Below are positions 114 through 24,939 of a stretch of 64,000 bases of DNA, piece after piece (the first letter of the stretch is position 1; every line of letters begins with the position of its first letter). Location: the NCBI RefSeq assembly GCF_002087085.1, contig NZ_MWQY01000020.1:1-64000 (forward strand). Reading direction: 5' to 3'. The position numbers and the translations under genes are program-made. The notes beneath the pieces were generated by a model. It was not told where the DNA came from. It worked only from the letters and a program-made list of their open reading frames with translations, and did no database searches.

Positions 114-138
114 TTTATCCTCCTTAAAAAAGCACAAC

Positions 139-172: not shown

Positions 173-268
173 ATCACATTTATGGTCCGTCAACTTTTTC
201 TTTTCTGACTTTTAAGTTCCTCGTAAATCCTGAAAATACATAACGAACTAGGCTCCTAAAAAATGGAA

Positions 269-1048
269 TCATGAAAAGCTCTCACGAAACATCCGGAGAC
301 GTTCTCGAGCCACGCTGCTAAGGGTAGTTGTATCGGAAAAGAAAAAGACCATACTGTAGCCACGTTCATACTTTTCCTTTGCATCCTCCCAAGTCCCCGC
401 CACAGTCGCAAGAGATTTTCCAGAGGAAATTACTTTCTCTTCTATTACACGGATAGACTTCTGTACTTCGTCGGCCTTCGGGTTGCCAAAATAGCCCATA
501 TTGGTAGCAAGATCCATGGGACCGATAAAAATACCGTCCAATCTGCCGACGGACAGGATTTCATCCAGATGACTGACCGCTTCGGGAGTTTCTACTGCTG
601 TCATAAGAAAAACTTCTTCATTTGAACTTTTAAGATAGTCCATAGAGTTATTTCCGTAGTGAGCAGCACGTGGGCTGCCGGCGACCCCTCGGATACCATC
701 GGAAGGATAGGATACAGCACTAACCGCCGCGAGCGTTTCTTCCTTGGAATTGACATAGGGAACCAAGAGACCGTAGACCCCAGCATCCAATATCCTTTTA
801 ATCTGAACAAAATCATTCCATGGGGCCCGGCAAAACGGTATCGCCACTTCTCCCTTCATTGCCTGAATCTGATGAATCGTAGCCATGATGTCTCCTGGTC
901 CGTGTTCCAGGTCGATCATTAAAGCGTCATAGCCTGCTTCAGCAAGGATCTCCGTGGTTATGGGACTTCCAGACTGGCACCAGGCACCGGAGACTTTTTT
1001 CCCTTGCTTCAGCATGGCTTTTACAATATTCTTGTTTTTTTCCAGCAT
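269..1048 (-). CDS. HpcH/HpaI aldolase family protein
   Basis: Motifs IDLEHG, RAPWND, RGVAG, AVET and FIGPMDL. Start moved to MLEKNK (1048), downstream of the transaldolase stop. Confidence 0.9.
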   Translation of the reverse strand: MLEKNKNIVKAMLKQGKKVSGAWCQSGSPITTEILAEAGYDALMIDLEHGPGDIMATIHQIQAMKGEVAIPFCRAPWNDFVQIKRILDAGVYGLLVPYVNSKEETLAAVSAVSYPSDGIRGVAGSPRAAHYGNNSMDYLKSSNEEVFLMTAVETPEAVSHLDEILSVGRLDGIFIGPMDLATNMGYFGNPKADEVQKSIRVIEEKVISSGKSLATVAGTWEDAKEKYERGYSMVFFFSDTTTLSSVARERLRMFRESFS

Positions 1049-1065
1049 CTTTTTTTCCTTTCCGC

Positions 1066-2112: not shown

Positions 2113-2123
2113 GTCCTTATCTC

Positions 2124-3554
2124 CTAGGCAAAGACTTCCGCTTCAATATCCAATATGCTACAAACTTCCAACAGCTCATTAAGATAGTTCCCTTCAACAC
2201 CGGATATGTGGTTTGATCCATATTCGTTTATAAAGGCATCCAGGTCAAAATCCACCTTAGCAAAAAGGGCGGGAAGCTGATGAGGACCCCGGGCTTCGAT
2301 AAATTCTTCAAGCATTTCTTTAGTAGGATCTTCAGCCTGACAGGGGATAATTGCCATTTTGTACTTACCGTTTTTGCGGTATAGTCGAGCCAACTGCATT
2401 GGTCCGGGAGCTGCATTAAAATAGGTAATCCCGCCGCCTCCCGGACGAACAGACTGCTTGATAACGATTTTCTTCAGATTCTCCCGAGTATCATTACTCC
2501 GGTTGGCATAATACACGCAAAGAGCACCGCAGTTTACACAATACATCTTCTTCCGGTCATTATCTATATGACTGACATCGGCAAAGAATGTGGGCTTGCC
2601 CCCGGATAGCAGCTTAAGGATCTGTTGGGTAAGGGCGCCGTCGGCATCGGCTTCACAAGCTATGGGAGTAGTCTCTTTTTCGCCCTCAGCATCATCATAG
2701 TTAGCCAGTAAAGCCTGGGTAATACACTGGGGAACATAGGAATTGGAGAGCTCGTGCATACACTTCAGTGCGACGAAATCCATACCGTACTCTTTTACCA
2801 GATCCTTTGTTGCCAGATAGCAGGCAATTTGAAAATCGAATTTCTCTTTTGTGAGCTTGGCATCATTGTAGACCACTTCGCTTACACCAGCTTCCAGCCA
2901 ATCCCGGTGTTTATCGATTCTGTCCTGGGGAATGGTTTCAGCAACTCGAATAATCTCCACTTGGTCCAGATGCTCCGAATCTACACCGAATTGGGTTTTC
3001 CACTGCATGGGATCGTAGGTGCTCGTATCAATACCGATTGACCGTCCTCCAAAAAGACCGAAAACGGATCCCTTGAGCTTCTCTCTGACCGCTGCCGCGT
3101 TGAGCAAAGGCAAGACTTTCCTTTGATAAATCTCTCCATCATAATTCTCTCGGATACATCGATGGGGAAATCCAATCTGAGAAAGAGCACCCGAAGCTCC
3201 CAGTAAACCGACGCATCCATGGGAGCCCGGATCCCGGTTACCCAAGATTACGGTAAAAATGCCCATGCGCTGGACACCGTGGACAACGAGGTTAGGGCTT
3301 GTCCAGCATGGAACATGTGCCACAAGAACGTCGACATTCTGTGACTTGAGATAATCAACAGCATCATTAATCTGATCCCGGGTGCGAGCCACTTCCTCGG
3401 CACAAACTAATTCGACAGGGAGTTTCTTCAGTTCCGCCATTGCTTTTTGATGAAGCGGAATGGCCAAGCGTGAGAAAACGTTTTTCCACATATCCGGACG
3501 ATGATCGCCGAATGTCATAAAACCGATTCTCGCTACATCACTTGTTATTCGCAT
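2124..3554 (-). CDS. L-fucose/L-arabinose isomerase family protein
   Basis: KCMHELS, ACEADADGALT, FFAD, NCG and C-terminal NHI motifs. Start moved to MRITSD, which has an AGGAGAG RBS. Confidence 0.85.
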   Translation of the reverse strand: MRITSDVARIGFMTFGDHRPDMWKNVFSRLAIPLHQKAMAELKKLPVELVCAEEVARTRDQINDAVDYLKSQNVDVLVAHVPCWTSPNLVVHGVQRMGIFTVILGNRDPGSHGCVGLLGASGALSQIGFPHRCIRENYDGEIYQRKVLPLLNAAAVREKLKGSVFGLFGGRSIGIDTSTYDPMQWKTQFGVDSEHLDQVEIIRVAETIPQDRIDKHRDWLEAGVSEVVYNDAKLTKEKFDFQIACYLATKDLVKEYGMDFVALKCMHELSNSYVPQCITQALLANYDDAEGEKETTPIACEADADGALTQQILKLLSGGKPTFFADVSHIDNDRKKMYCVNCGALCVYYANRSNDTRENLKKIVIKQSVRPGGGGITYFNAAPGPMQLARLYRKNGKYKMAIIPCQAEDPTKEMLEEFIEARGPHQLPALFAKVDFDLDAFINEYGSNHISGVEGNYLNELLEVCSILDIEAEVFA

Positions 3555-4389
3555 TGCTCTCTCCTTTCTTATACTCCTGGAGCAGGTTAAAATCCTGCTC
3601 TGTAACAGTCTTGAATCCTGGTACTGGAAACGCTTGGAAACTTCGACCGCCATCGTTATAAATTGATTGTCCAAAAATGAAATCCGAATCGTCTGACGCT
3701 AAAAATACCGCCAGACGACCGCATTCTTCAGGGGTTCCGATCCTGCCTATCGGAGTACGGGAAATCACGGTGTTATACAGCTGCTCATCCGATCCGACCC
3801 GTCGCATTAGTTCCGTATCAATCGGTCCCGGCGCCATGGCGTTTACCTTGATTCCGTACGGCGCCAGAGCGACTGCCTGTACTTTGGTTAGCTGCTGTAT
3901 TGCCCCCTTGGATGTTGTATAAACCATTTGGCTATCCAGAGCGAGATATGCATTTACAGAGGAAATATTTATGATAACCCCGCCCTCGCCCTGCCTTGCC
4001 ATACGCCTGGCTGCATACTGACCGCCAAAAAACAGCCCCCGGAGATTTACATCCATGATCCTGTCATACTGCTCAGGAGTGATATCAAGATAGCGCGTCT
4101 TGTCGGGATCATTGATCCCCGCATTGGCAACATAAATATCCAGGCGTCCGAACTTCTCTACCGTAAAATCCACCAGCATTTCCAGATCATCCAGAACAGA
4201 CACATCGCATTTCGTAAAGACGGCATCTCCATCAAGAGCCTTCAGCTCTCCGCAAGCTGCTTCACCCTGCTCCTCATTTCTCGAGCAGATGACGACCTTT
4301 GCTCCTTCACGGATAAATTCTTTCGCTATGCCCAGGCCTATTCCTTTTGATCCGCCGGTTACAATAGCAACCTTATCCTTAAGTCTCAC
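3538..4389 (-). CDS. SDR family oxidoreductase
   Basis: [11 protein letters not shown], YxxxK (YTTSK) and PGPIDT. GTG start with an AGGAGG RBS. Confidence 0.95.
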
Positions 4390-4403
4390 TCTTTCCTCCT
4401 GTT

Positions 4404-4439
4404 AAAAAACGACTTTCGGTCATCATGGCCGAAAGTCGT
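4404..4439 (-). terminator. Intrinsic terminator-like hairpin inside the operon
   Basis: Minus strand ACGACTTTCGGCCA-TGA-TGACCGAAAGTCGT followed by TTTTT. Confidence 0.65.
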
Positions 4440-4449
4440 CTAAGCGCTC

Positions 4450-5355
4450 TTATTTTTTTAGCCGCCCTTTTTCATCATGATCTTTATCATACTTAATCTG
4501 ATCAGTATAATTGTATCCAATGGGGTTTCTAAATCCTAGAGGATTGATGCCGCAGGCATATTTCTTCCGTATCTCCTCGACCAGACGTACATAATGATTC
4601 GCTACCCCTTCTACAAGCTTTTCACCTTTCTCTCGACTTGCACTTGTAGGATCGCCGATTGTGCCGTTGTCCAGATCATCTTTTTCCGGTAGAGCGAAAG
4701 TGCCTTCGAAGTGATAAAGCATACCCGGCGCCGCTGCTGCCCCCGGCGCGATCTTCCAGTCACCTTCAATCAGGCCTTGTCCACCACCTGGTTCGGCAAG
4801 ACTCATGTCGATCATTTCAGGATACAGGTACAGTCCAACCGAAGTCTCCGCTTCATCAGCATGCCACATATAGTCCTTCAGGACTGTTTTATTATCACGA
4901 AGAAAATCGTACCATGTTGAGGAAATGGTAAAATAACCTTCGATGCCCAGTTTGTGGACCGCCACAATCGTGGAGGACACCTGTCCATGAGCGGAAATAA
5001 TGATAAATTTGTTAAAACCGGATACTGCCGCACCGCGAACGATGTCCATAAGAAGTGCGATATGAGTCTCGAAAGTCAGAGGAATCGTTCCAGGCATTCC
5101 CCAATGGTGGTGAGGATGAGACCCGTACATGGGGCATGGCAAGAGCATGGCGCCCGTCTTTTCGGCAACTTTTTCTGCTATACCTATAGCGTTAAAAGTA
5201 TCCATTCCACAGGGGCAGTGTGCCGCATGCTGTTCGATCGCCCCGATGGGCAGAATGGCAACATCACAGACGTCTTTCGCATAGGCCGAATTGACCGGAG
5301 CGGAATTCTCGTGAAACCAAACAGACTTTCTTCCTTCTAGTCCTTCTTTTAGCAT
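4450..5355 (-). CDS. Creatininase family hydrolase
   Basis: PIGAIEQHAAH, D in GMDT, SAHG and WHADEAETS metal-binding motifs. Start MLKEG with an AAGGAG RBS. Confidence 0.9.
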   Translation of the reverse strand: MLKEGLEGRKSVWFHENSAPVNSAYAKDVCDVAILPIGAIEQHAAHCPCGMDTFNAIGIAEKVAEKTGAMLLPCPMYGSHPHHHWGMPGTIPLTFETHIALLMDIVRGAAVSGFNKFIIISAHGQVSSTIVAVHKLGIEGYFTISSTWYDFLRDNKTVLKDYMWHADEAETSVGLYLYPEMIDMSLAEPGGGQGLIEGDWKIAPGAAAAPGMLYHFEGTFALPEKDDLDNGTIGDPTSASREKGEKLVEGVANHYVRLVEEIRKKYACGINPLGFRNPIGYNYTDQIKYDKDHDEKGRLKK

Positions 5356-5409
5356 CTTATCTCTCCTTAATACGTGAAAAAAATATTCCAAAAACTCATA
5401 GAGTTCCTG

Positions 5410-6465
5410 TTACAAGGGAAACGATATTTTCAGTTGATGCGCTAATGCTTTCAACTCTTCAGAGAGGGTCACCGGCACGGGTATGCCCGAGACCTTCCTC
5501 TCCTGTTCGTTTTTACACTCAATCTCTCCCGGCACGATCTGATGTATATTCGGATCGTTCATTGGTGTATTACGGATCATACGGGCCCATTCAGTGATCC
5601 TCTCCTCATAATCCTGTTTCACGAGAAAAAAGGAAGGATTGATTGTCATGAAGAGGTGTGTCGTAAGACTGGTTTCGTCAGGATTCTTGTACATGCTTTT
5701 CAAATCATGAAGGAACGGACCTCCGCTCAATACCCCGGTAACGAGATCCACGAACAAGGACAATCCGAAACCTTTGTGCATCCCTACCGGCAACAGAAAA
5801 CCTTCAAAGCCCTTTTGAGGGTCATCGGTCTCATCCCCTTCCTTGGTAACCGCCCAATTGGTGGGTATTTTTTCTCCTTTTTTGGCCGCGAGCAGCAGCT
5901 TCCCGCCAGCCACTGCGGATAAGGAGATATCAAGAACGAAAGGATGATCGCCAGTCATAGGAGCAGCTACAGCAATAGGATTATTCCCGGTGGAAGGTTT
6001 CGTATTACCCTTCATGCCTATGTTGGGAATAACGTTGGTACTTGCTATCCCAATCAAACCGGCCTCGACGGCAAGACGTGCATACAGAGCCGCCGCCCCG
6101 AAGTGATTACTGTTTCGCACAAGAGTCATTCCTATTCCGAAGGTCTTCGCCTGCTCTATGGCTTTCTCCATCCCGGCCCTTCCAAGGACGAACCCCATTC
6201 CTCCATCGCCGTCCAGCAGGGCTACTGGACCGCTACTCGGCAAAAGTGACTTGATTTCCGGTGTCGGATTCACCGCACCTGAAATAACTCGTTTAAGATA
6301 GACAGGAACGCGAAGCACGCCGTGGGAATCGACTCCCCAAAGGTTGGTTTTTACTAAACAGTCGGCGGTAAAATCGGCATCCGGACCATTCATCCCGCCT
6401 TTGCGGAACAGATCAGCAATAAACCTGCGAAGCACATCCGGCTGAACCATTATGTCTTTATCCAT
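5410..6465 (-). CDS. Ldh_2 family (malate/L-lactate/sulfolactate/ureidoglycolate-type) dehydrogenase
   Basis: GVDSHG, NSNHFGAA, GNNPIA, HKGFGL and PGE motifs. Confidence 0.92.
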   Translation of the reverse strand: MDKDIMVQPDVLRRFIADLFRKGGMNGPDADFTADCLVKTNLWGVDSHGVLRVPVYLKRVISGAVNPTPEIKSLLPSSGPVALLDGDGGMGFVLGRAGMEKAIEQAKTFGIGMTLVRNSNHFGAAALYARLAVEAGLIGIASTNVIPNIGMKGNTKPSTGNNPIAVAAPMTGDHPFVLDISLSAVAGGKLLLAAKKGEKIPTNWAVTKEGDETDDPQKGFEGFLLPVGMHKGFGLSLFVDLVTGVLSGGPFLHDLKSMYKNPDETSLTTHLFMTINPSFFLVKQDYEERITEWARMIRNTPMNDPNIHQIVPGEIECKNEQERKVSGIPVPVTLSEELKALAHQLKISFPL

Positions 6466-6475
6466 ACCCTCTCCA

Positions 6476-6491
6476 ATGTATACGTATTCAT
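6476..6491. promoter_or_regulatory. LacI-type operator copy 2 (one mismatch)
   Basis: ATGTATACGTATTCAT in the 40-bp gap before the Ldh_2 RBS. Confidence 0.75.
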
Positions 6492-6505
6492 TTCTGACAA
6501 AACAA

Positions 6506-7396
6506 TTACCTGATTTTCATCCGGTAAACAGTAGACGTTGCGGTAATATACAGGGTTCTCTCGTCCTCTCCCCAGGTAAAATTTGCCGCTACTTCAGGAA
6601 TATTGATCCGTCCAAGACAATCACCGTCTTCATCGATTATGAATATACCCCCCGGCCCCGTACAGAAAATTGTGCCGCGGGAGGTACATTTCATACCATC
6701 AAGCACTCCGTCCCCGCTGCCCTGAGGAGACGAGAAGATGCGCTTGTTTTCCAGCATACCCTTCGTTCCGACATCGAAGGCAAAAATTATTCCCTGTGCG
6801 CTATCGTTTACATAGAGAATTTTTTCATCCGGGGAAAAGCAAAGTCCGTTGGGCAATTGCAGTCCATCTTCCAGCAAATAAAGAAAAGCGTTTCTCCGAT
6901 CATACATGTATACTCCCTGAAAAGAGAGTTCCGGCGGTCGAGGGATTCCAACACGCGGAAACCTGCCGGGCATGGGATCGGTGAAATATATATTCTTATC
7001 TGATTTAAGCACCACATCGTTCGGACTATTAAGACATCTTCCATTGTACGAATCGGCCAGAACCGTATAAGTCCCGGATCGTAAATCCGTTGCCGAAACA
7101 CGACTTGTACCGTGTTCGCAGGTAATGAGGATCCCGTCCTTGTCGTATGCGTTTCCGTTGGCGAGGTAGCTGTTTGGACGCAGCAGTGAAATTCCCTTAT
7201 TTTCATCCCAGCTATAGAGAGCATTGCCCGGAATGTCGCTAAAAATCAAACGATTTTGATCCTCTATCCAAACAGGACCTTCAAGAAAACGAAAACCCGT
7301 CGCCAACGTCTCCAGGAAAATCTGATTCTTTACAATCTGCCTAAACCTGTTATTAAAGGCTTCGACTTCAACCGGAATTTTGCTCGCTTCTTTCAT
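6506..7396 (-). CDS. SMP-30/gluconolactonase family protein
   Basis: FLEGPVW, FSDIP, ANGN, NSPND, PNGLCFSPD and DGM motifs. Confidence 0.93.
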   Translation of the reverse strand: MKEASKIPVEVEAFNNRFRQIVKNQIFLETLATGFRFLEGPVWIEDQNRLIFSDIPGNALYSWDENKGISLLRPNSYLANGNAYDKDGILITCEHGTSRVSATDLRSGTYTVLADSYNGRCLNSPNDVVLKSDKNIYFTDPMPGRFPRVGIPRPPELSFQGVYMYDRRNAFLYLLEDGLQLPNGLCFSPDEKILYVNDSAQGIIFAFDVGTKGMLENKRIFSSPQGSGDGVLDGMKCTSRGTIFCTGPGGIFIIDEDGDCLGRINIPEVAANFTWGEDERTLYITATSTVYRMKIR

Positions 7397-7408
7397 CCTG
7401 CTCCCCAA

Positions 7409-7449
7409 ATGTATACGTATACATTACCACGGGTTTTTTACCCTGTCAA
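7409..7449 (-). promoter_or_regulatory. Sigma70 promoter with overlapping LacI-type operator copy 3 (7409-7424)
   Basis: Minus strand TTGACA-N17-TAATGT. The -10 runs into the perfect ATGTATACGTATACAT. Confidence 0.85.
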
Positions 7450-7542
7450 GTTTTCTTTTTGATAAAAGTTACAATTTTATGCAAGGCACCTCAAAGAACT
7501 ACTGGTTTTCTCATATTCCAAGGCATCAAGATTTAGCCCGAT

Positions 7543-7581
7543 CCTCATCCTGCATCAAAGCATTATCAGTGCAGGATGAGG
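7543..7581. terminator. Hairpin downstream of lacI
   Basis: CCTCATCCTGCA-N15-TGCAGGATGAGG; no clear U-tract. Confidence 0.45.
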
Positions 7582-7635
7582 CGATACAAAATATTTCCTT
7601 CTTGACCATAGAAAAAATACTACAGAGGAACTGTC

Positions 7636-8658
7636 CTAGGTTCGATCAATCACGGATTCTCTTTCGATTATTTCCCCGGAAATCATCCTTAGAACGACTT
7701 CATCCTTGTCGGAATCTATTTTTTCCAGCAGTACCTGAATCGTTACTTCTACCATTTCTTTCACTGGCTGATTGATGGTAGTGAGCTTGTAATGGGGGCT
7801 TGCTGCCATAACGGAATTGTTGAATCCGATTATCGACATATCGGCCGGGATCTGCAGATTAAACTCGTCCTCAAGACAATCAATCAGGCCAAAGGCCATC
7901 TCATCGCTGGCACAAAACACTGCATCAGGCAGAATGTTCTGTTTCATCATCTTCTTCCCCGCCTTAATGCCCGATTCGTAGGTATAGTCCCCAACATACC
8001 GATCGAAGAGTGTTTTTCCACTATTAGCCAGATATTGCTTTAGTCCTTTTTCTCTATCCATGTTGGTAGAACTGTTAACATCGCCCGAGAGATATGCAAT
8101 TTTTGAATGACCTCGGTTCAGCAAGTATTCTGCAGCATTCTCTCCAGCGCGTTTATTGTCCAAACAGATAGCACTTACATCCAAACCTTTGGAATATCGG
8201 TTAAACTGAACAACAGGAACATTCAGATCCATGCAGCTTCGTATCAATTTTGGAGAAAGTGATACTGCGGTTGTTATCAGTCCATCGACCTGATACTGAA
8301 ATGCGATGGGAATCACATCTTCCAAAGCTGCCGTCCTGGGTATATTCAAGAGCATTACGGTATACCCCCTGCTCTGCAAACCCAGGGTGAAGAAATCCAA
8401 TGCACCCAAGTAAAAATACCCGCCAAAAGCAGGGTTTACAATTCCGATGATGTTGGTTTTTCTCATATTCAAACTGCGAGCCAGGTTGTTAGGCTGGTAA
8501 TTCAGCTCTTTTGCGGCAGCCAGGACTTTTTTCCTAAGAACATCAGAAACCTTTTCGGCCGGTGTAAATACTCGCGACACCGTCGCCTGGGAAACACCGG
8601 CCATTTTTGCAACATCTATGGATGATACTCTTTTAAGATTTTTTTTCCCGGTGCTCAT
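7636..8658 (-). CDS. LacI family transcriptional regulator
   Basis: HTH SSIDVAKMAGVSQATVSRVF, hinge YQPNNLARSL, and a periplasmic-binding-protein-like effector domain. Confidence 0.96.
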   Translation of the reverse strand: MSTGKKNLKRVSSIDVAKMAGVSQATVSRVFTPAEKVSDVLRKKVLAAAKELNYQPNNLARSLNMRKTNIIGIVNPAFGGYFYLGALDFFTLGLQSRGYTVMLLNIPRTAALEDVIPIAFQYQVDGLITTAVSLSPKLIRSCMDLNVPVVQFNRYSKGLDVSAICLDNKRAGENAAEYLLNRGHSKIAYLSGDVNSSTNMDREKGLKQYLANSGKTLFDRYVGDYTYESGIKAGKKMMKQNILPDAVFCASDEMAFGLIDCLEDEFNLQIPADMSIIGFNNSVMAASPHYKLTTINQPVKEMVEVTIQVLLEKIDSDKDEVVLRMISGEIIERESVIDRT

Positions 8659-8858
8659 GGTACCCCTGCCGATTTCTTAATTTAAGAATTCCTGAAAAGA
8701 ATATCGATGGATACCGTATAGCTTTTCGGGAATTCAGTACTGTTACATTATTTATATATGTCAAAGACCCTGGTTTCAATAGGATTGCGTAGTAAACCTG
8801 TAAACAAGCTTTTGAGGTGCCTCCTAATTTACCCGAGCGGATTCTGCCCCTGCCTTCT

Positions 8859-9995
8859 TCAAATTCTTTGGAAAGGTGCTGAATTGAACTCTTTTATTGC
8901 ATCATAAAGAGCCTTTATATTGACAGGCGGAATATCATGCCCGACATTGTGACAGGTACATATAATGTACCCCCCATTAACTGCCAGATCACAGATACGC
9001 GTGTTAACTTCTTTCCTGATCTCTGCCGGAGACATATTTACCAGGACTTTTTGAACATCGATTGCTCCGTGAAAGCAGATGTCGTCACCGAATTCTTTTT
9101 TCAAAAGCCCTGTATCCCTTAGTTCCTCAACCGATGTTTGTATGGGATTCAGAAAATCAATCCCCATTTTTTCAATCATCTTCCTGAGCAGCGGTTTGAC
9201 AGAACCATCCGTATGGAAAATAACCTTTACATGAGGAGCGCACGACTTTATATGTTGAATCAAATCCGCTTCATACGGCAGTATAAATTCTTCCCACATA
9301 TCCGGAGACATAAGAAGGGAATTCTGTGTACCAAAATCATCGGTAAGGTATATGACCTGGATAAAATCACTTACCTCGGCCATATACCGGGTGTACATCT
9401 CCTTATAGACTCCGGTTATCCGCCCTAATAAGGCATGTGCAAATTCCGGGTCCAGCACCAGATCCATAAAAAACTGATCATATCCGGCAAGTTCAAGAGA
9501 TGTCTGAAGGGGCCCCCCTTTTATTCCGTCTGCACCTATTACATAGTCGGTATTGTGATACCAGGACTCGGCCTGCTGACGGAGTCCCTCAAACTGCGAC
9601 GGGTCATCCGTTTCAGGCCATGCGTGCTTTTCGATCCCTTCAAGACCTTTCCCCTTAAGCGGTGCATCGGCAATCGCATAGTAATCCCCGGAATCCTTGA
9701 ATAGGGTCCCGAAGGTATTCCGGTAACTGACTTCACTGATCTCCTGTATATTTGTCCAGTGAGGGATGAGCCACCTGAAGTCAATTCCCCATATTTCCAG
9801 AAGATCTTCGTCGGTATGAACGCACTGACTCATTCGATCAAGTATTCGCAGCGGTTGCGGCTCAAGACCGTACTCCGCCCGAATCTTGTTATAGACAAAT
9901 TTATGAATCGAGCTGACCTGCTTTCCATGGTCAAGCAGTATTCTATCAGATTTCTGATGGTTCACTGTTCGCTTAAAAATCTCTCTTCTGTTCAC
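8859..9995 (-). CDS. Uroporphyrinogen decarboxylase / MtaA-CmuA-like family protein
   Basis: TDDFGTQNSLLMSP, IFHTDG, NPIQ, FHGAID and GGYII..CHN motifs. GTG start. Confidence 0.85.
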   Translation of the reverse strand: MNRREIFKRTVNHQKSDRILLDHGKQVSSIHKFVYNKIRAEYGLEPQPLRILDRMSQCVHTDEDLLEIWGIDFRWLIPHWTNIQEISEVSYRNTFGTLFKDSGDYYAIADAPLKGKGLEGIEKHAWPETDDPSQFEGLRQQAESWYHNTDYVIGADGIKGGPLQTSLELAGYDQFFMDLVLDPEFAHALLGRITGVYKEMYTRYMAEVSDFIQVIYLTDDFGTQNSLLMSPDMWEEFILPYEADLIQHIKSCAPHVKVIFHTDGSVKPLLRKMIEKMGIDFLNPIQTSVEELRDTGLLKKEFGDDICFHGAIDVQKVLVNMSPAEIRKEVNTRICDLAVNGGYIICTCHNVGHDIPPVNIKALYDAIKEFNSAPFQRI

Positions 9996-10040
9996 GATAT
10001 CCCCCTTATTATCAGTTCAAATGTTTCAGATACACGTTAA

Positions 10041-15259: not shown

Positions 15260-16549
15260 ATGAGCACAACAGGTCTTGCACCCCGGGTAACCCAGAAAAG
15301 CATCTTCCTCGCATGGCTTCCCCTGGCGGCCATGTGGATTTTCATGGCTGTAGAGCAGCCCGGTATTGCCGCGATAATAGCACGAATGCCGGAGGTAAAA
15401 AAACAGCTTGCCATTTTCGGGGTGGTTTTTTCCTTTTCCCTGATAATAGAGAGCCCCATAATCCAGATGCTCTCTGCCGGGGCCGCCCTGGGAACAGACC
15501 GCAGCAATTACAAAAAACTGCTGCATTCCATGCACCTTATGGGTGTCGTGCTTACCCTGATACATGTTCTCGTGGGGGTAACTCCTCTTTTCGATTTCCT
15601 CATCCTGAAAGTTATCGGTATGCCAGAGGACTTTCTTGCCGACAGCCGGACGGCCTTTCTGTTCATGTCTCCCTTTACCGCCTCCGTGGGATACCGCAGG
15701 CTCTGGCAGGGGGTGCTCATCCGGCAGGGACAGTCCAGGGTAATCCCCGCTGTCATGCTGACCCGGCTGCTGACCTCCGCCTGCGTCCTTCTCCTGGGGA
15801 TGTTTTTCCGTTTCCTTCCCGGAGCCGCCGTCGGGAGCCTTGCCCTGACCCTGGGGGTCATAGTCGGAGCCCTGGGTTCCTATGCCTTCGTCCGCCGGGA
15901 GCTTCCCCGAATGCGCCGGGGGGAGGGGGATTTCTCCTATGTATCCCTTTTTCATTTTTATTATCCCCTGGCCCTCACCTCCTTTATTGATCTTGCCGCG
16001 CGGCCGATCCTTTCGGTGGGTGTTGCCCGGGCGGCCAGACCCATCGAGTCCCTGGCCATATGGCCGGTGGTGATGGGCTTCATGTTTCTGTTCAACTCCT
16101 TTGCAAAGTCCTACCAGGAGATTGTAATAACCCTGAACGACAAACCCGGTGGACAGCGGGAGCTGAAACGCTTTGCCCTCCGCATGGGTCTCACCGTTTT
16201 CATCTCCTTCCAGCTGGTGGTGTTCACCCCCTTGAGGGACCTCTGGTTCCGCTACGTCTCGGGGCTCGATGCGGAACTGATGGAACTTCTGCCCATGTCG
16301 GTATTATTCGCTTCCTTTGTCCCGGCAATCTTTTCCTCCATATCCTATAACCGGGGGGTTCTGATAACCAGTAAACGGACCGGTTTGGTCAGCCTGGGGG
16401 TGTTTATCAATTTTATATCCATGGTGACCTTCATGTTCACCCTGCTGCTTGTCCCGGGGATTACCGGTGCAACCCTGGCCGCCGCTTCATTCTTCGGTGC
16501 CATGGCGGTGGAAGCCGTCTTCCTGGCATGGAAAAGGAGCAGGGGATAG
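15260..16549 (+). CDS. MOP-superfamily (MATE/ANKH-like) membrane transporter
   Basis: About 12 hydrophobic segments with a two-fold internal repeat (WLPLA.. / YYPLA..). Confidence 0.7.
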
Positions 16550-17696: not shown

Positions 17697-18707
17697 GTGA
17701 GAGTCATCGACAGCATAGAAAACAGAGAGAAAACAGGCTTCCTGGGCTCCGCTCCGATTTTTTCCTCCCTGGGGGCGGAGGAACTGGATTTTATCGCCGA
17801 ACACTGTGCACTGTACGAGTTCGATGGCGGAGAGCTCATTTATGAGGCCGGTTCCAGACGGGCGGAACTTTTTGTTCTTGCCGAGGGAAAGGTCGGCATA
17901 TACCGTCACGCTGAGAATAAGGAAACAGACGAAGCCGTGGCCCGCTTTCTCCCCGGAGAATGCTTCGGGGAACTCGGTCTCCTGGCCGATGAGCCCCGGG
18001 AGGAACTCGCAAAAGCGGAGGAAAAATCCCGCATTCTTGTCTTTCCTCAGCGAAGCACGGACTTCCGGGAGATTCTTGCCGCCCGTCCCGCCCTTTCTTC
18101 CCGTCTGCTCCGTAAACTCATGGAGTCAACCGCTTCCAGGCTGCGCCAGGCCAACCGGCTCATCAAGCAGAACTCCCCATGGATACGGGAATTGCGGCGC
18201 CAGGTATATACCGATCCTCTGACGGGGCTTCCAAACCGGACCTACCTGGAGGAAAACCTGATCAGCTTTTTTTCCTCCCCTCCCTGCGCTCTGCTGATGT
18301 TCAAACCGGATAACTTTAAACAGATCAACGACAGCTTCGGGCACGAGGCCGGGGATGCGGCGATTCAAAAGATCGGCCGCTTTTTATCAGGAATAGCCCT
18401 GCCGGAGGAGAAGGTCGTACGTTTCATGGGTAACGAATACGCCCTGATCTGTCCCCAGACCGATATTGAAGAAGCCGTAGAACGCGCCAGAGAAATACAG
18501 GAACGCCAGGGGAACCTCAGCTACGAATACCAGGGTCGACCGAACGACCTCGTGGTTACCGTCAGTGCCGGCATCGCCGTCTATCCCAGGCACGGGGGAA
18601 GTGCCGCCGGGCTTATCGCCGAAGCCCACAGACTCGCCATGCGGGGCAGGACCCTGGGGGGGCGGCAGCTTCTGATCGCCTCCCCGGAAAACGGTGAAGC
18701 ACCATGA
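17697..18707 (+). CDS. cNMP-binding domain + degenerate GGDEF domain protein
   Basis: FGELGLL..EPR cNMP cassette, TDPLTGLPNR and FKQINDSFGHEAGD. The signature reads MGNEY. Confidence 0.9.
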   Translation: MRVIDSIENREKTGFLGSAPIFSSLGAEELDFIAEHCALYEFDGGELIYEAGSRRAELFVLAEGKVGIYRHAENKETDEAVARFLPGECFGELGLLADEPREELAKAEEKSRILVFPQRSTDFREILAARPALSSRLLRKLMESTASRLRQANRLIKQNSPWIRELRRQVYTDPLTGLPNRTYLEENLISFFSSPPCALLMFKPDNFKQINDSFGHEAGDAAIQKIGRFLSGIALPEEKVVRFMGNEYALICPQTDIEEAVERAREIQERQGNLSYEYQGRPNDLVVTVSAGIAVYPRHGGSAAGLIAEAHRLAMRGRTLGGRQLLIASPENGEAP

Positions 18708-20866
18708 CGGAGAGGGTCTTTCTCCGAGGCGTGGATATCTTTTCTACCCTTTGTGCCGAAGAACTGGAGATCCTTGCAGGCCTGCTGAAGCGTCGTCTTT
18801 TACGGAGGGGTGAACTCCTTTTTTCGGAAGGTGATGACGGGGAAGAGATGTTCATCGTCGAAAGCGGCAGGATGGGAGTAAGCGTAGCCCTTGAAAAGGG
18901 GGGAGACCTGGAGGTCGCGGAGTTCGGCCCCCGGGAGTTCTTCGGAGAAATGTCGATCTTTGAAGGCGAACCCCGCTCCGCCAGCTGCAAGGCAAAAGAG
19001 GACTGCTCTCTCTTCAGTCTGAAAGCCGGGGATTTCTTCAGCCTGGCGGAGCGGTATCCTGAAACTTCAAACAGAATAATGCATCGTATGCTGAACATAA
19101 CCGCCCGGAGGCTCCGGAATACGAACCGCTTTCTGACGGAAATGGTAAGCTGGGGAGAATCCGCCCGGAAACGTGCTGTAACCGACGAGCTGACCGGCCT
19201 GTACAACCGGGGCTTCTTTGATGTCAGCCTCAAGCGCACGATTTCCGAAGCCCTCAGTGCGGGAGAGCCCCTGTGCCTTGCCATGGCGGACCTCGACGGC
19301 TTCGGCAGGCTGAACAGCCTCCACGGAGAGGAAACATGCAACCTGGTAATCCGGAAGGCGGCGGAGGTTTTCCGTCAGGGTTTCTCCGACGGGGATATCC
19401 TGACCCGTTACGGAGGGGATGAGTTCGCCTTTATTCTGCCGGGACGAAACTTGCGGGAAGCAAAGGAGTTATGCGATGATATATGCAGAAGAATGCAATC
19501 CCTCAGAATCGAGACGAATCGGAACCGGGAGTCTATACTGTTAAGTACGAGCATCGGTATAGCGGCCCTTTCCGACAGGACCTCCTTCGATGAGGACCTG
19601 GTAAAGATGGCGGATGAAGCATTGTACAGAGCCAAGGAAACAGGCCGCGGCCGGGCTCTCAGTTACAGCGGGGGACAAGGGGTGATGAGAAAAAGTGACA
19701 TTCCGAGCATTGCCGCAAAAAACAGAATAGTCCTGCGGATCATTGAGGCGCTGCTTCAAAGCCGCAACGTCCTGGTACTGGGACACAGGAACAGCGATGA
19801 AGACTGCATTGCTTCCATGGTGGCAATATCCCTTCTGGTAAAAAAGCTCAACAGAAACGTCTCCATTCTGCTGACCGAACAGATACATGAGCGATTTCAC
19901 TACCTTCTGAATATCTGCCGCTACAACGCCATCCATGTTATACCGGACTGTTCCGGCGGGGCGGATGAAATCGATACCATCTGCGTTGTGGATACCCCAA
20001 AACCGGAAATGCTCCAGATCTGCGAAGGAGCGCAGAAACTGCTTGCTTCTCCCAGGGTAAGGGTAATCGAATTTGATCATCACCTGGCAGCGGATTCCGC
20101 CTATATCGCCCCCAGGGAAACGGCCCTGGTGACGACAGCATCGTCGACCTGCGAGCTGATCGGCTTTCTGGCCCTGAAGATGCGATGTCTTCGGGATCGT
20201 TTCGAGGAGATCGACGGGGAAGACCTCTTCAGCCGGAACTTTGTTCTGGCCGTTCTCACCGGAATTGTCGGGGACTCGAAGATGGGGAAGTTCATAAAAA
20301 ACCACCGGGAGCGCTGGTTTTACAAACTCTTCTCCTCCCGTTTTTCCCGCATGCTCAGCGAGAAGACCCATCAGACCTCATCGAACCTCTCCTCCATGGA
20401 GGACATCTTCAAGGAGATCACCAGGCTCTCCCAGCTGGAAGAGCGATGTTTCAAGTACTTCATGAAATACAGACAGAGCCGGGGCTGTATTGCCTACACC
20501 GTCCTCGATGAAGAGATGACAAGTCCCCTCCCGGAGGAGACCGATATTGATCTCTTCGTCGCCACCGCCCGTTCGGTGGCGGATGCCCTGGCGGAAGAGA
20601 GCGGCTGCCTGGGAATGGTGGCCTACCACGACCCTCCGGAGGTTTCGGATCTTATCCAGTTTCGTATACGTCGCAGCCACTCCTTCCAGAATTTCGACCT
20701 GCGGGAAATTCTCTCCGCCGCCGGAATCGAGAACGGCGGCGGCCACGAAGGAGCCATCGGATTCCGGATTCCCAAAAAGGAGATATCGGACATCCGGGAA
20801 TACTGCAGTCACCTTACAGATATCATCATCGGTTTATTTACACCCCCTCAGGGCAAAGTAAAATAG
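18704..20866 (+). CDS. cNMP-binding + GGDEF + DHH/DHHA1 phosphoesterase fusion
   Basis: FFGEMSIF..EPRSA; TDELTGLYNR; YGGDEF. DHH motifs GHRNSDED, VVDT, FDHH, SSTCE and GIVGD; DHHA1 motif GGGHEGA. Confidence 0.92.
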   Translation: MTERVFLRGVDIFSTLCAEELEILAGLLKRRLLRRGELLFSEGDDGEEMFIVESGRMGVSVALEKGGDLEVAEFGPREFFGEMSIFEGEPRSASCKAKEDCSLFSLKAGDFFSLAERYPETSNRIMHRMLNITARRLRNTNRFLTEMVSWGESARKRAVTDELTGLYNRGFFDVSLKRTISEALSAGEPLCLAMADLDGFGRLNSLHGEETCNLVIRKAAEVFRQGFSDGDILTRYGGDEFAFILPGRNLREAKELCDDICRRMQSLRIETNRNRESILLSTSIGIAALSDRTSFDEDLVKMADEALYRAKETGRGRALSYSGGQGVMRKSDIPSIAAKNRIVLRIIEALLQSRNVLVLGHRNSDEDCIASMVAISLLVKKLNRNVSILLTEQIHERFHYLLNICRYNAIHVIPDCSGGADEIDTICVVDTPKPEMLQICEGAQKLLASPRVRVIEFDHHLAADSAYIAPRETALVTTASSTCELIGFLALKMRCLRDRFEEIDGEDLFSRNFVLAVLTGIVGDSKMGKFIKNHRERWFYKLFSSRFSRMLSEKTHQTSSNLSSMEDIFKEITRLSQLEERCFKYFMKYRQSRGCIAYTVLDEEMTSPLPEETDIDLFVATARSVADALAEESGCLGMVAYHDPPEVSDLIQFRIRRSHSFQNFDLREILSAAGIENGGGHEGAIGFRIPKKEISDIREYCSHLTDIIIGLFTPPQGKVK

Positions 20867-20892
20867 CCCGGAAGGCTGTGGTATACTGGGGT

Positions 20893-22161
20893 ATGAGCAC
20901 CGGACAGATCCCTCATGCATTTCCCTCCCCCAGACACAGACCACCGGAAGCAGGCAGCCTGTATGAGGCACCTGAACGGCTTCTGTCGACGATATCCTCC
21001 AGGACAGGGCAGATTCCCGCGGTACTGAACATTGTCGCCCCCATTGGATACGGAAAAACAAATCTGGCCGCCGCGGTCTGCCGTTCCCTTTTTTCCAGGA
21101 GTATATGGCTCAGCCTGACAGAAGGATGTGCCGATGAGCTGACCTTTAATTCCGACCTGCTCCTGTCAATCAGGGAGGCCGGACTTCCTGTTACGGGACA
21201 TCAGGACCTTAGCGACGTTTTTCAACAACAAAGCCCGGTCTGCCTGGTCCTGGACAATCTGCATCTGCTGCCCCGGGGGACCTCCGGATTTGTTCTGGAG
21301 TTTTTCGCGTCCCTGCCGGAGAACAGCCTGATGGTTCTCTGTGCCGACGAGGACCACAGTCTTCCGCTTTCCCGCCTCAGGATCGACGATCGTGTTCTGG
21401 AAATTCGTATTGAAGATTTAACAGCCACAAAGGATGAACTCGCGGCGTTCTTTGTCCGCCTCGGATCTTCTCCGTCGGAGGAGGACCTGGAGCTTATTCT
21501 GCAGAAGACCGGGGGATGGTGGGCCTGTATCCGTCTTTGTGCGATCAGCTGGCGCCAGCTCGATGCGGCAGGCAGAAAGGCGTTTCTGAACCAGTTCAGG
21601 GCCACGGACCGCTTTATCCGGGAGTTCCTGACCGAAAACATCGATACCCATCTTGCTCCGGAACACCTGGATTTTTTACGGACCATTTCAGTCTGCACCC
21701 ATATCAGAACCGAACTTGCATCCCGGCTTTGCGGGATCCCGGAGGATCGTATCCGGACTCTTGTACAGGAACTTGCGTCCCGCTTCATTCTGCTTCCCAT
21801 CGGTCACGGCTGGTACCGACTTCCGGTCATTCTCAAGCAGCACTACTGTGCGGAACTCGACAGAAGCAGCCGGGAGAATCTGCACCGCAGGGCATCCGGG
21901 TGGTTCCAGTTACAGCATATGCCGAAACTGGCCTCCCATCATCTTCAGAAAGCCGGAATACAGTCTCCCCTGGCTCCCAGGGAAACGGAGATCCTCCTCC
22001 AGGCAGCTCAGGGTCTGAGCAATGCGGAGATCGGTGAACGCCTCTTTATCAGCCAGGGTACGGTAAAGTGGCACATGAACAGGATCCTGGAAAAACTCGA
22101 CTGCAGCAACCGGACCGCTGCAGTTGAAACCGCAAGAAGAAACGGTTTTATCTCCGGCTGA
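20893..22161 (+). CDS. MalT-like ATPase-LuxR transcriptional regulator (short form)
   Basis: Walker A APIGYGKT, Walker B LVLDN, TGGW, and a C-terminal LuxR HTH (PRETEIL..GLSNAEIGERLFISQGTVKWH). Confidence 0.88.
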   Translation: MSTGQIPHAFPSPRHRPPEAGSLYEAPERLLSTISSRTGQIPAVLNIVAPIGYGKTNLAAAVCRSLFSRSIWLSLTEGCADELTFNSDLLLSIREAGLPVTGHQDLSDVFQQQSPVCLVLDNLHLLPRGTSGFVLEFFASLPENSLMVLCADEDHSLPLSRLRIDDRVLEIRIEDLTATKDELAAFFVRLGSSPSEEDLELILQKTGGWWACIRLCAISWRQLDAAGRKAFLNQFRATDRFIREFLTENIDTHLAPEHLDFLRTISVCTHIRTELASRLCGIPEDRIRTLVQELASRFILLPIGHGWYRLPVILKQHYCAELDRSSRENLHRRASGWFQLQHMPKLASHHLQKAGIQSPLAPRETEILLQAAQGLSNAEIGERLFISQGTVKWHMNRILEKLDCSNRTAAVETARRNGFISG

Positions 22162-22252: not shown

Positions 22253-22498
22253 ATGAACGCCAGTCGTAAACGGTCCTATCAGATTCTCGCAGAGGGAACA
22301 ATAACCCGGATAGAAGATGAACGGCTTTCGTCATGGATATTCCAGTCCCTGGAGGATGGAAAAACCCTCATGACCGGGCCGCAAATCGACAGTTCCGGCC
22401 TCTACGGAATTCTGTCGGCCCTGCGGGACAGCGGAATCGTGCTCCTGGGAATCAGAGAAGTCAAACCACCCCACAGAACAGGAGGAGACAGAAAATGA
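22253..22498 (+). CDS. Small conserved hypothetical protein of the type often found next to MalT-like regulators
   Basis: GGAG RBS; pattern Y.I...G..T.LTGP.ID.S.LYGIL..LRD.G; ATGA overlap with the next gene. Confidence 0.65.
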   Translation: MNASRKRSYQILAEGTITRIEDERLSSWIFQSLEDGKTLMTGPQIDSSGLYGILSALRDSGIVLLGIREVKPPHRTGGDRK

Positions 22499-24939
22499 AG
22501 CATTCAATTTTCATCGCTGCATGTATTGCAGCCGTATCACTGATGGCAGGCTGCGCCAGCTTTACAGGGACCATCCCCATAGAAAGCGATGCACCAGAGG
22601 CGTTCTATATCTCACCCAAAAACGCCGACGGAATCAAGGACAGCCTGGCAATAGCGCTGGATTTCCCGGAAATAAAGGGACTGACAATCTCTTTCTATGA
22701 GTATTCGATTCAGCGTGACGACGGATCTTCGTTCTACAGTTATTCCGAGCGGGCGGAACGCCCTCCGTGGTATAAACGGATTATCGGCGCAAAGGCGGCG
22801 GTAAAACTGCCCCGGGAAATCGTCTGGGACGGCCGGGGAGACACGGGCGTTTTTGCCCCGGACGGGAAATACTACATGCTTGTACGTGCGGAAGATGCAA
22901 AGGGCAACCGGGGAGAAGCCGGGCCTTTTACGGTCATCGTGGACGATACCCCCCCGGCGGTACATGTAATGCTTCCCTATACCGTGTTTTCTCCCAACGG
23001 TGATAATAACCGTGATACCCTGGATATCTATTTTCGCGACGCTTCTCTGGAAGAAACCTGGGAAGCCCGGATTCGAAAAAGCGACAATACCCCGGTTCTG
23101 GACTACAGCTGGCAGAAGTTCCCCATGGACACCCGCTGGGACGGCAGGACTGAAACCGGAGAACTTATGGCAGATGGCGAATACATCTTCTCGCTAAGCT
23201 CCACAGACCTGGCGGGCAACAGCTTCAGCTGGGACAGCGGCCCCCTCTTGAAGGAATCCGCCCTCCCCCCGATCTCCGCCAGGCTTTCGGATACAATACT
23301 GTCCCCCAACGGAGACGGAATAAAGGATTCAGTAATTCTGTATCTTGACGCCGAAACGCCGGACAGGATTGTCAAGGCCGGGATATCTGTGATCGGGAAA
23401 AACGGTGCAAGTCTGGCCAGTCTTCCGGCGCCTTCGAGTTACCCGACAAGCATAACAATAAACGGTATAATGGATAACGGGCGCCCGATTCCTGACGGTA
23501 TATATTATATCCGGTTCAACGTGGAATACCGCAACGGGGCTGTTCCCTCCACCGTGACACCTCCTCTTCTCATTGATACAGCTCCCCCGTCAGCAGTAGT
23601 CAGCGTCGATTACCGGCTCTTTTCTCCCGACGGCGACGGTCGCAGGGATGAGCTGAGCTTTTACCAGAGCAGCGAAGAAGCCTCTGCCTGGAGCGGATCC
23701 ATAACCGACCAGAGCGGCCGCACGGTTTTTCGCCGCGATTTCGGTCCCCGGGCCCCCGGTTTCGTCTGGAACGGCCGGGACTCCCAGGGCAGGGCTGTTC
23801 CTGACGGCGTTTATACATACAGCCTTCAGGGTTCCGACGAGGCCGGCAACAGAGCCCTCCGGCGGATTGACGGTATTCGTGTCGATACCCGGCCCACCCC
23901 GGTGGCGCTGCGCTCCATGGATACCAGCTTCAGTCCCAACGGGGACGGGATCACCGAAACAGCCCGTTTTACCCCGGTTATAGAGATTACCGAAGGAATC
24001 AGCTCATGGCTCTTCGAGATCACCGACAGCAGGGAAACTGCAGTCTTCGCCCTTTCCGGAAGGAGCTATAACGATCTTCCCCGCACCCTTCTGTGGACCG
24101 GAGAAGGGGCTCCCGAAGGACTCTACGGCGGACGCCTTACCGCGGAATATGAAAAGGGAAATGTCGCTGTCAGCGTCAGTCCTGAACAGGTTGCCCTGGA
24201 TATCAGCGGACCTGGAATCAATGTTCAGGTATCGTCACTTCCCTTCGGACCCGATGGAGACGGGGTAAACGACAGGCTGATGATCAAAATCGCTGTGGAT
24301 GATCCCTCGGGAATCATCCTTCGGGAAGCCGAGATTCTCGATCCCGCGGGGAACGCCTTCCTTCGTCTGCCTGCCGCTGCTTTTACATCCGCAGGCTGGT
24401 CCTGGGATGGAAAATCCGCCTCGGGGGAGCTGGTACAGTCCGCTTCCGACTACACCCTCGTTGTCCGGTCCAGGGATACCGTGGGAAACGAAAGCCGCTA
24501 CAATCTGGCAATCCCGGTGGATATTCTGGTAATCCGTGACGGAGACCGTCTGAAAATCAGTATCTCCAGCATTTACTTCAAACCGAACACTCCCGACTAC
24601 ATCAATGTGGAGCCGGAGACCGCCAAACGGAACCTTGCAACCCTGGACAGACTGGCTGAGATTCTCAAAAAGTATGCCGACTACCGGATCAGACTCGAAG
24701 GTCATGGCGTACGAATCTACTGGGACCAGCCGCAGCGCTGGCTGACTGAGGAAACCGAGGTACTGGTGCCCCTCTCCAGGGCCCGGGCAGAGGCCATCCG
24801 ATCCGCCCTCAGCTCCCGGGGAGTCAAACCCGAACGCATGAGTATAGAAGGTTTCGGAGGTTATCGGCCGGTGGTTCCCCACGGAGATCTGGATAACCGC
24901 TGGAAGAACAGGCGGGTGGAATTTATCCTGGTTAAATAA
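22495..24939 (+). CDS. OmpA-family lipoprotein with six FlgD-Ig-like repeats
   Basis: AGGAGG RBS and lipobox LMAGC; six SPxxDGxxD...W(D/N/T)G repeats; C-terminal LEGH..LSRARAEA..NRRVEF. Confidence 0.9.
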   Translation: MKHSIFIAACIAAVSLMAGCASFTGTIPIESDAPEAFYISPKNADGIKDSLAIALDFPEIKGLTISFYEYSIQRDDGSSFYSYSERAERPPWYKRIIGAKAAVKLPREIVWDGRGDTGVFAPDGKYYMLVRAEDAKGNRGEAGPFTVIVDDTPPAVHVMLPYTVFSPNGDNNRDTLDIYFRDASLEETWEARIRKSDNTPVLDYSWQKFPMDTRWDGRTETGELMADGEYIFSLSSTDLAGNSFSWDSGPLLKESALPPISARLSDTILSPNGDGIKDSVILYLDAETPDRIVKAGISVIGKNGASLASLPAPSSYPTSITINGIMDNGRPIPDGIYYIRFNVEYRNGAVPSTVTPPLLIDTAPPSAVVSVDYRLFSPDGDGRRDELSFYQSSEEASAWSGSITDQSGRTVFRRDFGPRAPGFVWNGRDSQGRAVPDGVYTYSLQGSDEAGNRALRRIDGIRVDTRPTPVALRSMDTSFSPNGDGITETARFTPVIEITEGISSWLFEITDSRETAVFALSGRSYNDLPRTLLWTGEGAPEGLYGGRLTAEYEKGNVAVSVSPEQVALDISGPGINVQVSSLPFGPDGDGVNDRLMIKIAVDDPSGIILREAEILDPAGNAFLRLPAAAFTSAGWSWDGKSASGELVQSASDYTLVVRSRDTVGNESRYNLAIPVDILVIRDGDRLKISISSIYFKPNTPDYINVEPETAKRNLATLDRLAEILKKYADYRIRLEGHGVRIYWDQPQRWLTEETEVLVPLSRARAEAIRSALSSRGVKPERMSIEGFGGYRPVVPHGDLDNRWKNRRVEFILVK

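Follow-up and report, generated by a model that had tools for sequence, protein, structure and literature searches.

A conserved pair of cyclic-nucleotide-binding GGDEF proteins in Spirochaetota, one catalytically dead and one intact, with a linked DHH/DHHA1 hydrolase

What can two adjacent GGDEF proteins do together if one has lost catalytic residues that the other keeps? The question is raised by a locus in a 64,000-nucleotide stretch of DNA (the window; positions 1 to 64,000 of contig NZ_MWQY01000020.1, assembly GCF_002087085.1), where gene A encodes a cyclic nucleotide monophosphate (cNMP)-binding domain followed by a degenerate GGDEF domain, and gene B encodes a cNMP-binding domain, an intact GGDEF domain and a DHH/DHHA1 hydrolase part (Table 1). 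GGDEF cyclases are known as homodimers whose two half-sites are identical. The original prediction, made from the sequence alone, took A and B for an obligate heterodimer with complementary substitutions, encoded by genes that overlap by ATGA. The overlap is present, and a four-base overlap is common to seven of the 15 relatives' loci in which it was measured, with the first in-frame start codon taken as the start of each open reading frame (ORF); in the other eight the spacing ranges from a gap of 10 bases to an apparent overlap of 23. The A-B(-DHH) module is real, conserved and apparently undescribed, and a literature search (open-access papers and preprints, without their supplements) turned up no publication that describes a cNMP-GGDEF pair together with a DHH partner. 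Published work is cited below for what is stated in the excerpts of the papers concerned.

Residues of A and B were assigned by alignment to solved cyclases and to orthologues, and the codons were then located. Positions are numbered as in PleD. The numbers are consistent with the ranges aligned to solved cyclases and with the residue roles in PMC12943098 and PMC7288161, according to which D327 and E370 are metal ligands, N335 and D344 read guanine, and the phosphates are contacted by K442, R446 and the backbone of F330-K332, K332 being named as a transition-state stabiliser.

Protein A has K203 at the D327 position, MGNEY for GGEEF, with N246 at E370 and E247 at E371, and R318 and G322 at K442 and R446. 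It retains K208 (K332), N211 (N335) and D220 (D344), as well as H216 and R242; the stretch from the D327 to the K332 position reads K203-P-D-N-F-K208. This agrees with the original prediction, in which K332, N335 and D344 were kept and D327 and most of the GGDEF signature were gone. The canonical AKxxGR motif, also listed there as lost, is indeed absent, but it has been changed to GRxxGG rather than simply lost. The metal ligands and intact GG(D/E)EF motif expected of an active cyclase are replaced in 59 to 60 of 60 A homologues (Lys at the D327 position in all 60, Asn at E370 in 59). The guanine readers N335 and D344 plus K332 are present in every one, as are D329 and H340, while Arg stands at K442 in 58, Gly at R446 in 56 and R366 is kept in 55. 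No RxxD I-site was found in A. Its cNMP cassette (FGEL...PREE) retains Arg in 17 of 18 locus rows but in fewer than 90% of 54 homologues, and the residue that follows is variable. Random variation among orthologues, named beforehand as the mark of simple decay, is not what was seen; since the same replacements recur in 56 to 60 of the 60 homologues, A is not decaying and, on this alignment, carries a conserved pseudoenzyme signature.

Protein B keeps D196, D198, N204, R235, GGDEF (237-241), K311 and R315, and deviates at two positions, with G201 at K332 and N213 at D344. The original prediction had read the window's protein in the same way, with metal and phosphate residues intact and K332 and D344 changed to Gly and Asn. 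The metal, GGDEF, R366, K442 and R446 set (D196, D239, E240, R235, K311 and R315) is present in 120 of 120 B homologues; across the family D327, D329, N335, R366, K442 and R446 never vary, nor does GGDEF, whose central residue is always Asp. The motif is strictly GGDEF and never GGEEF, both in these 120 and in 71 of the species-level loci described below. K332 and D344, which complete the active-cyclase set, are the positions that vary. At K332 the 120 homologues have Arg (67), Gly (44), Thr (four), Asn (three) or Ser (two), and the 71 loci have Gly (46), Asn (eight), Arg (eight), His (five), Ala (two) or Ser (two); Lys occurs in neither set. At D344 Asp predominates (101 of 120 and 66 of 71), with Asn in 19 and five. 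The mirror-image substitutions proposed for orthologous pairs are thus a conserved signature in A, while in B position 332 is most often Arg among the homologues and D344N belongs to a minority. The complementarity and the emphasis on D344 in the original prediction are borne out only in part. An RxxD I-site in 67 of 120 points to cyclic di-GMP (c-di-GMP) for the family.

The cNMP cassette of B (FGEM...PRSAS), which had been called intact-looking, is canonical: R91, S92 and A93 are invariant in 76 homologues. The I-site is a different matter in the window, where SDGD (S228xxD231, without the Arg) occupies the place of RxxD five residues before GGDEF. In a set of 100 A/B pair rows (about seven of them genomes fetched twice, with 93 distinct in the tree test described below), Asn-344 and RxxD occur together in none of 11 Asn-344 loci, DHH-linked B proteins have a residue other than Arg at 332 in 60 of 71, and A-B fusions have Arg-332 with Asp-344 in 11 of 11. 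D344N with loss of the I-site marks a few lineages, the window's among them; there, Gly-332, Asn-344 and the missing I-site together may mean that the nucleotide choice or the product of B has shifted.

The genome from which the window comes has 28 GGDEF domains. Lys at the D327 position occurs in A only, Lys at the K332 position is found in 26 (the exceptions are B and a degenerate NSDTF domain), and Asp at the D344 position in 27, with B the sole exception. Because the residues of A and B are so rare in their own genome, the observation is confirmed, and by this comparison the pattern is not chance. A candidate third cNMP-GGDEF protein of this genome proved by sequence to be a receiver-type GGDEF protein and was dropped as an internal control.

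The two genes travel together. A profile scan of species-representative genomes with A gave 327 loci, and species-level counts refer to the best 80 of these, all from Spirochaetota-titled lineages save one labelled just 'bacterium'. B lies directly 3' of A in 78 of the 80; of the other two, one runs into the end of its contig and one is without B. Downstream of B there is a DHH gene in 59 loci; in 12 the contig stops first, and nine have room but no DHH gene. In at least 23 of the 80 a single reading frame covers both B and DHH. In a sample of 401 Spirochaetota genomes, in which five candidates were scored per genome and the count of A is a lower bound, A was found in at least 104 and the DHH orthologue in 111: 87 have A and the hydrolase, 24 the hydrolase only, 17 A only and 273 neither. 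Within the class, the A-B pair is present in at least 21 of 41 genomes. At least 22 of the 401 have A and B fused in a single frame; the ten that were fetched are all single ORFs of 647-677 aa in the order A then B, and further fusions are present in the representative library (P0306 and P0307). These counts bear out both the predicted partnership of A and B and the predicted link to a DHH hydrolase. A-then-B is an old module, found only in Spirochaetota among the loci examined. As fusions and pairs occur without DHH, A plus B make up the constant core, which the hydrolase often joins as a third member.

When 46 pairs taken at random were placed on a tree, A and B formed reciprocally monophyletic groups with a single label change. 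Identity averages 0.40 among A proteins, 0.44 among B proteins and 0.27 between the two partners. The A/B duplication is, on these data, old and both copies are under similar constraint. A natural A-B fusion was modelled with AlphaFold2 from a 13-sequence alignment; the model had a predicted local distance difference test score (pLDDT) of 80.8 and a predicted template modelling score (pTM) of 0.47, and left the packing of its domains undefined.

The hydrolase part of B keeps all DHH/DHHA1 catalytic motifs in the alignment. In 75 aligned homologues (hydrolase-part numbering) H36, D40, D42, D105, D133-H-H135, R329, R331, R332 and GGGH 353-356 are invariant, and D199 is found in more than 90%. 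The DHHA1 match fell below the Pfam cut-off (20.3 against 25.9 bits), with the GGGH motif nonetheless there. Matches to solved structures by sequence were weak (E 2e-4 to 4e-3), so the family was placed by fold. The hydrolase model (pLDDT 83, pTM 0.77) matched TM1595, GdpP, Borrelia DhhP, NrnA and Rv2837c in Foldseek (E 7e-17 to 1e-12). A second aligner placed NrnA, Pde2, Rv2837c, TM1595 and DhhP together at Z 20.6-22.3, ahead of GdpP (18.7-19.2), family II pyrophosphatases (near 15) and RecJ (12-14). The motifs, the Arg cluster and the two-lobed fold that define the NrnA/DhhP/TM1595 group are all present, and the modelled hydrolase is a divergent member of this group, whose enzymes act as phosphodiesterases on dinucleotides and nanoRNA. 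Its length, about 390 aa, exceeds the 314-340 aa of the listed NrnA-group chains; additional helices within a low-confidence stretch of the model, at about residues 201-250, may explain the difference.

Fusion of the hydrolase to B is a variable trait. In the closest relatives B stops at the junction and a separate DHH gene begins at a Met equivalent to residue 328 here, in one relative with an ATGA overlap and in another with a stop codon a few bases ahead of the ATG. The in-frame B-DHH fusion in the window belongs to the species and is not an assembly slip, since contigs of four runs from four studies (one run possibly the window's own source sample) span the junction free of gaps and indels. 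In 21 loci (20 relatives and the window) B-DHH is a single ORF in six and two ORFs in 12; of the remaining three, one has the DHH part split, one has A-B fused without DHH and one has DHH alone. In one complete genome B-DHH is read as two ORFs of 471 and 259 aa (locus L039, 3974-6189, minus strand) with the break within the DHH part, which is either a disrupted copy or a frameshift.

What the pair might make follows from how the two halves of a GGDEF dimer share their work. The fourth residue of the GGDEF motif (E371) is poised at the 3'-OH of the nucleotide on the opposite monomer (PMC6456294), and the metals for each nucleotide come from the monomer that binds it (PMC12943098, PMC7288161). 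As aligned, the GGDEF domain of B retains all residues for a nucleoside triphosphate (NTP), two metals and the general base; that of A retains the guanine-reading and neighbouring residues, with Lys and Asn instead of both metal ligands. With a general base that acts in trans and metals that serve their own monomer, an A:B pair could form exactly one bond. We tentatively favour, with slightly less than even confidence, a cNMP-gated A:B hetero-pair with one catalytic half-site, served by a dedicated NrnA/TM1595-like hydrolase.

In such a hetero-pair each partner would bring its own cNMP sensor and long linker helix to the single catalytic half-site. A would bind a guanine nucleotide without metal and offer its 3'-OH, which Glu240 of B would deprotonate; the metal site of B would activate the alpha-phosphate of B's own NTP, to be attacked by that 3'-OH. 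One 3'-5' bond would be made per encounter, giving pppGpN, and for the reverse step A would have no metals. The linear product could be the output, or it could be rebound and closed to c-di-GMP in the manner of Cas10 with its one GGDD site. A linear product is not a forced conclusion, because the asymmetric palm pair of Cas10 builds linear and then cyclic products. The DHH/DHHA1 enzyme would clear the linear or cyclic product and set the lifetime of the signal.

A bolder form of this proposal, by analogy with Cas10, makes A and B an obligate asymmetric GGDEF heterodimer, the two-protein counterpart of Palm1 and Palm2, with a single metal site and a product other than plain c-di-GMP: a separate second messenger of spirochaetes that would be switched on by cAMP or cGMP and off by DHH/DHHA1. 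Candidate products would be pppGpG, pppGpA in Asn-344 lineages such as the window's, or a longer or mixed cyclic oligonucleotide. We consider this form improbable. The split site of class III adenylyl cyclases, which the original prediction also invoked, is a loose analogy because GGDEF monomers each hold a whole nucleotide.

Several observations weigh against the single-site hetero-pair. The RxxD I-site and Arg at the K332 position are each found in 67 of 120 B homologues, and most B proteins look able, from their residues, to act as ordinary homodimeric, product-inhibited cyclases; the I-sites in about half of them suggest that the B family at least binds c-di-GMP. Glu is kept at E371 in 58 of 60 A homologues, where the one-bond scheme does not need it, and the cassette Arg is less conserved in A than in B. 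The ten fetched A-B fusions all have unrelated neighbours and no adjoining hydrolase, and a complete genome with two A/B pairs (L052 and L053) has no DHH orthologue at E 1e-40. Nor does covariation between the partners help: residues at A368 and B332 go together (M-G 45, R-R 23, R-N eight and R-H five of the 100 rows), and on the tree these traits change three and two times, giving two independent pairs. The covariation is therefore explained by phylogeny and was rejected as evidence. In the L052/L053 genome one of the two B proteins combines Asn-344 with Arg-332.

Much of this would be expected if B, as a B:B homodimer, were a conventional diguanylate cyclase activated by cNMP, with A as a non-catalytic regulatory paralogue and DHH/DHHA1 as the phosphodiesterase for pGpG (or c-di-GMP) of the same circuit. 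A could trap B in unproductive heterodimers or relay the sensing of GTP or c-di-GMP. Retention of all catalytic residues in the 120 B homologues agrees with a working homodimer, as do the I-sites and Arg-332 just described, and there are precedents: XC_0249 is a cNMP-GGDEF cyclase enhanced by cGMP (PMC3770947), degenerate and intact GGDEF proteins of Escherichia coli form heteromers that are proposed to compete with homodimerisation (PMC5635695), CC_3396 has a degenerate GGDEF domain that senses GTP (PMC12943098) and PggH is a pGpG-specific phosphodiesterase (PMC8861645). The eight EAL domains encoded in the window's own genome would produce pGpG. A decoy or sensor, however, needs no adjacency to, overlap with or fusion to its target, which is what is found in nearly every genome, and were A purely a decoy, its 1:1 covalent fusion to B would inhibit B permanently. 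Lys is never found at the K332 position of B (0 of 120 and 0 of 71), and without an I-site A is unlikely to sense c-di-GMP by the usual route. The homodimer is the main rival explanation, possible but less likely than the hetero-pair.

It is very unlikely that the system is instead a GdpP-like enzyme, in which both GGDEF domains would be regulatory nucleotide binders and a cNMP-controlled DHH/DHHA1 part would cut cyclic di-AMP (c-di-AMP) or nanoRNA. The domain order GGDEF-DHH-DHHA1 is that of YybT/GdpP (PMC12943098), the fold matches include the GdpP catalytic domain, and the window's own genome has two DAC domains. The GGDEF domain of B is intact with invariant catalytic positions, however, whereas that of GdpP is degenerate; Pfam finds no transmembrane or PAS part in B, and the best GdpP family model in NCBIfam scored 26 bits against a cut-off of 707. 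Many genomes have the A-B pair without the hydrolase, and four other DHH loci in the window's own genome, although untyped, might handle c-di-AMP or nanoRNA turnover.

That A is a decaying, functionless duplicate of B with random losses, as its lack of the two metal ligands and of the greater part of the GGDEF motif might suggest, is scarcely credible given its shared replacements, 25 invariant columns across 54 aligned sequences, a within-A identity close to that within B in a clade of its own and a reading frame that is intact at every locus read.

Table 1. Genes, domains and junctions of the A-B-DHH locus in the window.
Feature	Position	Strand	Basis
Gene A: cNMP-binding domain and conserved catalytically dead GGDEF domain	17697..18707	+	GTG start, 336 aa ORF; Pfam
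A cNMP-binding domain, residues 41-127, phosphate-binding cassette FGELGLLADEPREE	17817..18077	+	Pfam PF00027, E 5e-15
A degenerate GGDEF domain, residues 171-315	18207..18641	+	Pfam PF00990, E 8e-29
ATGA stop/start overlap of A and B	18704..18707	+	sequence
Gene B: cNMP-binding domain, intact GGDEF domain and DHH/DHHA1	18704..20866	+	ATG start, 720 aa ORF; Pfam
B cNMP-binding domain, residues 31-118, canonical cassette FGEMSIFEGEPRSAS	18794..19057	+	Pfam, E 3e-22
B GGDEF domain, residues 158-316	19175..19651	+	Pfam, E 1e-35
B-DHH fusion junction, G326-V-M328-R	19679..19690	+	comparison with closest relatives
B DHH domain, residues 355-521: H361, D365, D367, D430, D458-H-H460	19766..20266	+	Pfam PF01368, E 6e-12
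B DHHA1 domain, residues 622-699: R654, R656, R657, GGGH 678-681	20567..20800	+	Pfam PF02272, 20.3 bits, below cut-off

For A and B, NCBIfam returned only generic GGDEF-domain matches, and no equivalog model passed its cut-off. PADLOC returned matches of 18-35 bits to the cNMP-binding part of Pycsar TIR effectors, because this sensor domain is shared with them, and no defence system. A scan for promoters and terminators between 16400 and 22400 gave counts close to shuffle expectation, and no match to the c-di-GMP-I riboswitch was found in the window's own genome or in the control genomes, so that this negative carries no weight. The same genome encodes seven class III cyclase domains, a potential supply of cNMP; its four other DHH loci have frames of 332-561 aa, beside one of 719 aa. 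In one relative a fusion of an ODP metallo-beta-lactamase with a class III nucleotide cyclase lies just past the cassette on the opposite strand (locus L031, 7982-9634, minus strand), and it is a possible local source of cNMP.

The genes that flank the three-part cassette differ between genera, and no conserved neighbour or effector gene was found there. AzlCD lies upstream within the genus, and a LuxR-type gene is downstream in the two closest relatives only. In the window, a MalT/LuxR-type regulator with a GerE domain and a weak AAA_16 match (20878-22161) is directly 3' of the cassette, and the next gene encodes an 868-aa FlgD_ig/CHU_C/Big_13 protein whose C-terminus is OmpA-like (22333-24939); conservation of both is limited to the two closest relatives. 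Upstream of azlC/azlD is a gene for a 429-aa membrane protein (15260-16549) with a weak match to ANKH, a pyrophosphate-export-like family (E 1.3e-8). Farther away, positions 1-10000 have a G+C content of 0.44-0.47, against 0.50-0.60 across the remaining window, and hold a minus-strand cluster encoding an HpcH-type aldolase, transaldolase-like, fucose-isomerase-like, SDR, creatininase-like and Ldh_2 proteins, an SMP-30 gluconolactonase and a LacI-type regulator. This cluster may be an acquired island for sugar-acid catabolism.

About one in four of the sampled Spirochaetota genomes keeps a dead and a live GGDEF paralogue next to each other or fused. If the hetero-pair is real, it would be the first fixed heterodimeric GGDEF enzyme, would show a route from a symmetric to an asymmetric cyclase, as in class III cyclases and Cas10, and would link cAMP or cGMP sensing directly to dinucleotide signalling in a phylum in which this has received little attention. 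The tied hydrolase offers a handle on the product, as the preference of the DHH enzyme is likely to reveal what the pair makes. The conservative reading, too, leaves a clean natural case of a pseudoenzyme locked to its active paralogue.

Among known systems, XC_0249 of Xanthomonas campestris (PMC3770947) has the cNMP-binding and GGDEF layout of A and of the N-terminal half of B, and in it a cyclic mononucleotide controls the GGDEF domain. The likeness is one of layout; XC_0249, as described in the excerpt, is a single protein without a dead paired paralogue or a DHH/DHHA1 partner. CdgI, PdeK and PdeR of E. coli (PMC5635695) are cases in which a degenerate GGDEF domain engages an intact one in two-hybrid assays, with a proposed inhibitory role; unlike A and B, these partners are not described as conserved adjacent or fused pairs. 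The Hypr GGDEF cGAMP synthases GacA and Bd0367 (PMC6456294) resemble B in having a GGDEF motif and a changed D344-equivalent, which in them is Ser or Thr and in B is Asn, in a minority of lineages only; they act as homodimers.

The closest precedent in layout, not named in the original prediction, is GdpP/YybT, a PAS-GGDEF-DHH-DHHA1 phosphodiesterase for c-di-AMP (PMC12943098) in which GGDEF and then DHH/DHHA1 follow in one chain. Its GGDEF domain is degenerate and acts as an ATPase, whereas that of B is intact, and it has transmembrane and PAS parts where B has a cNMP-binding domain. By Pfam, B thus lacks the combination of transmembrane region, PAS, degenerate GGDEF and DHH/DHHA1 that marks GdpP/YybT. 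Identity to the hydrolase part is about 19-20% and the fold is related. Unlike in GdpP, fusion is optional here, B and the hydrolase being separate genes in most relatives. The best fold matches of the hydrolase part, with all DHH/DHHA1 motifs conserved, are NrnA, Pde2, Rv2837c/CnpB, TM1595 and Borrelia DhhP; identity to these stand-alone enzymes is just 14-19%, and the hydrolase part differs from them in being tied genetically to a GGDEF pair. PggH of Vibrio cholerae belongs by description to the same DHH/DHHA1 group and is absent from the fold-match lists.

For the pair itself a parallel is found in Cas10 of type III CRISPR systems (PMC11734703), in which two homologous palms, Palm1 and Palm2, form a pseudosymmetric site. 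The metal-binding GGDD-type motif is in one palm only, and Lys, Ser and Asp residues of Palm1 bind the second ATP (PMC11734703). Both palms are part of one large protein in a ribonucleoprotein complex that uses ATP and makes cA3-cA6, and A and B are not members of the Cas10 family at the sequence level. GGDEF and Cas10 palm domains are homologous (PMC2904730), and the likeness suggested here is one of working principle, in which A and B would divide between two proteins what Palm1 and Palm2 divide within one.

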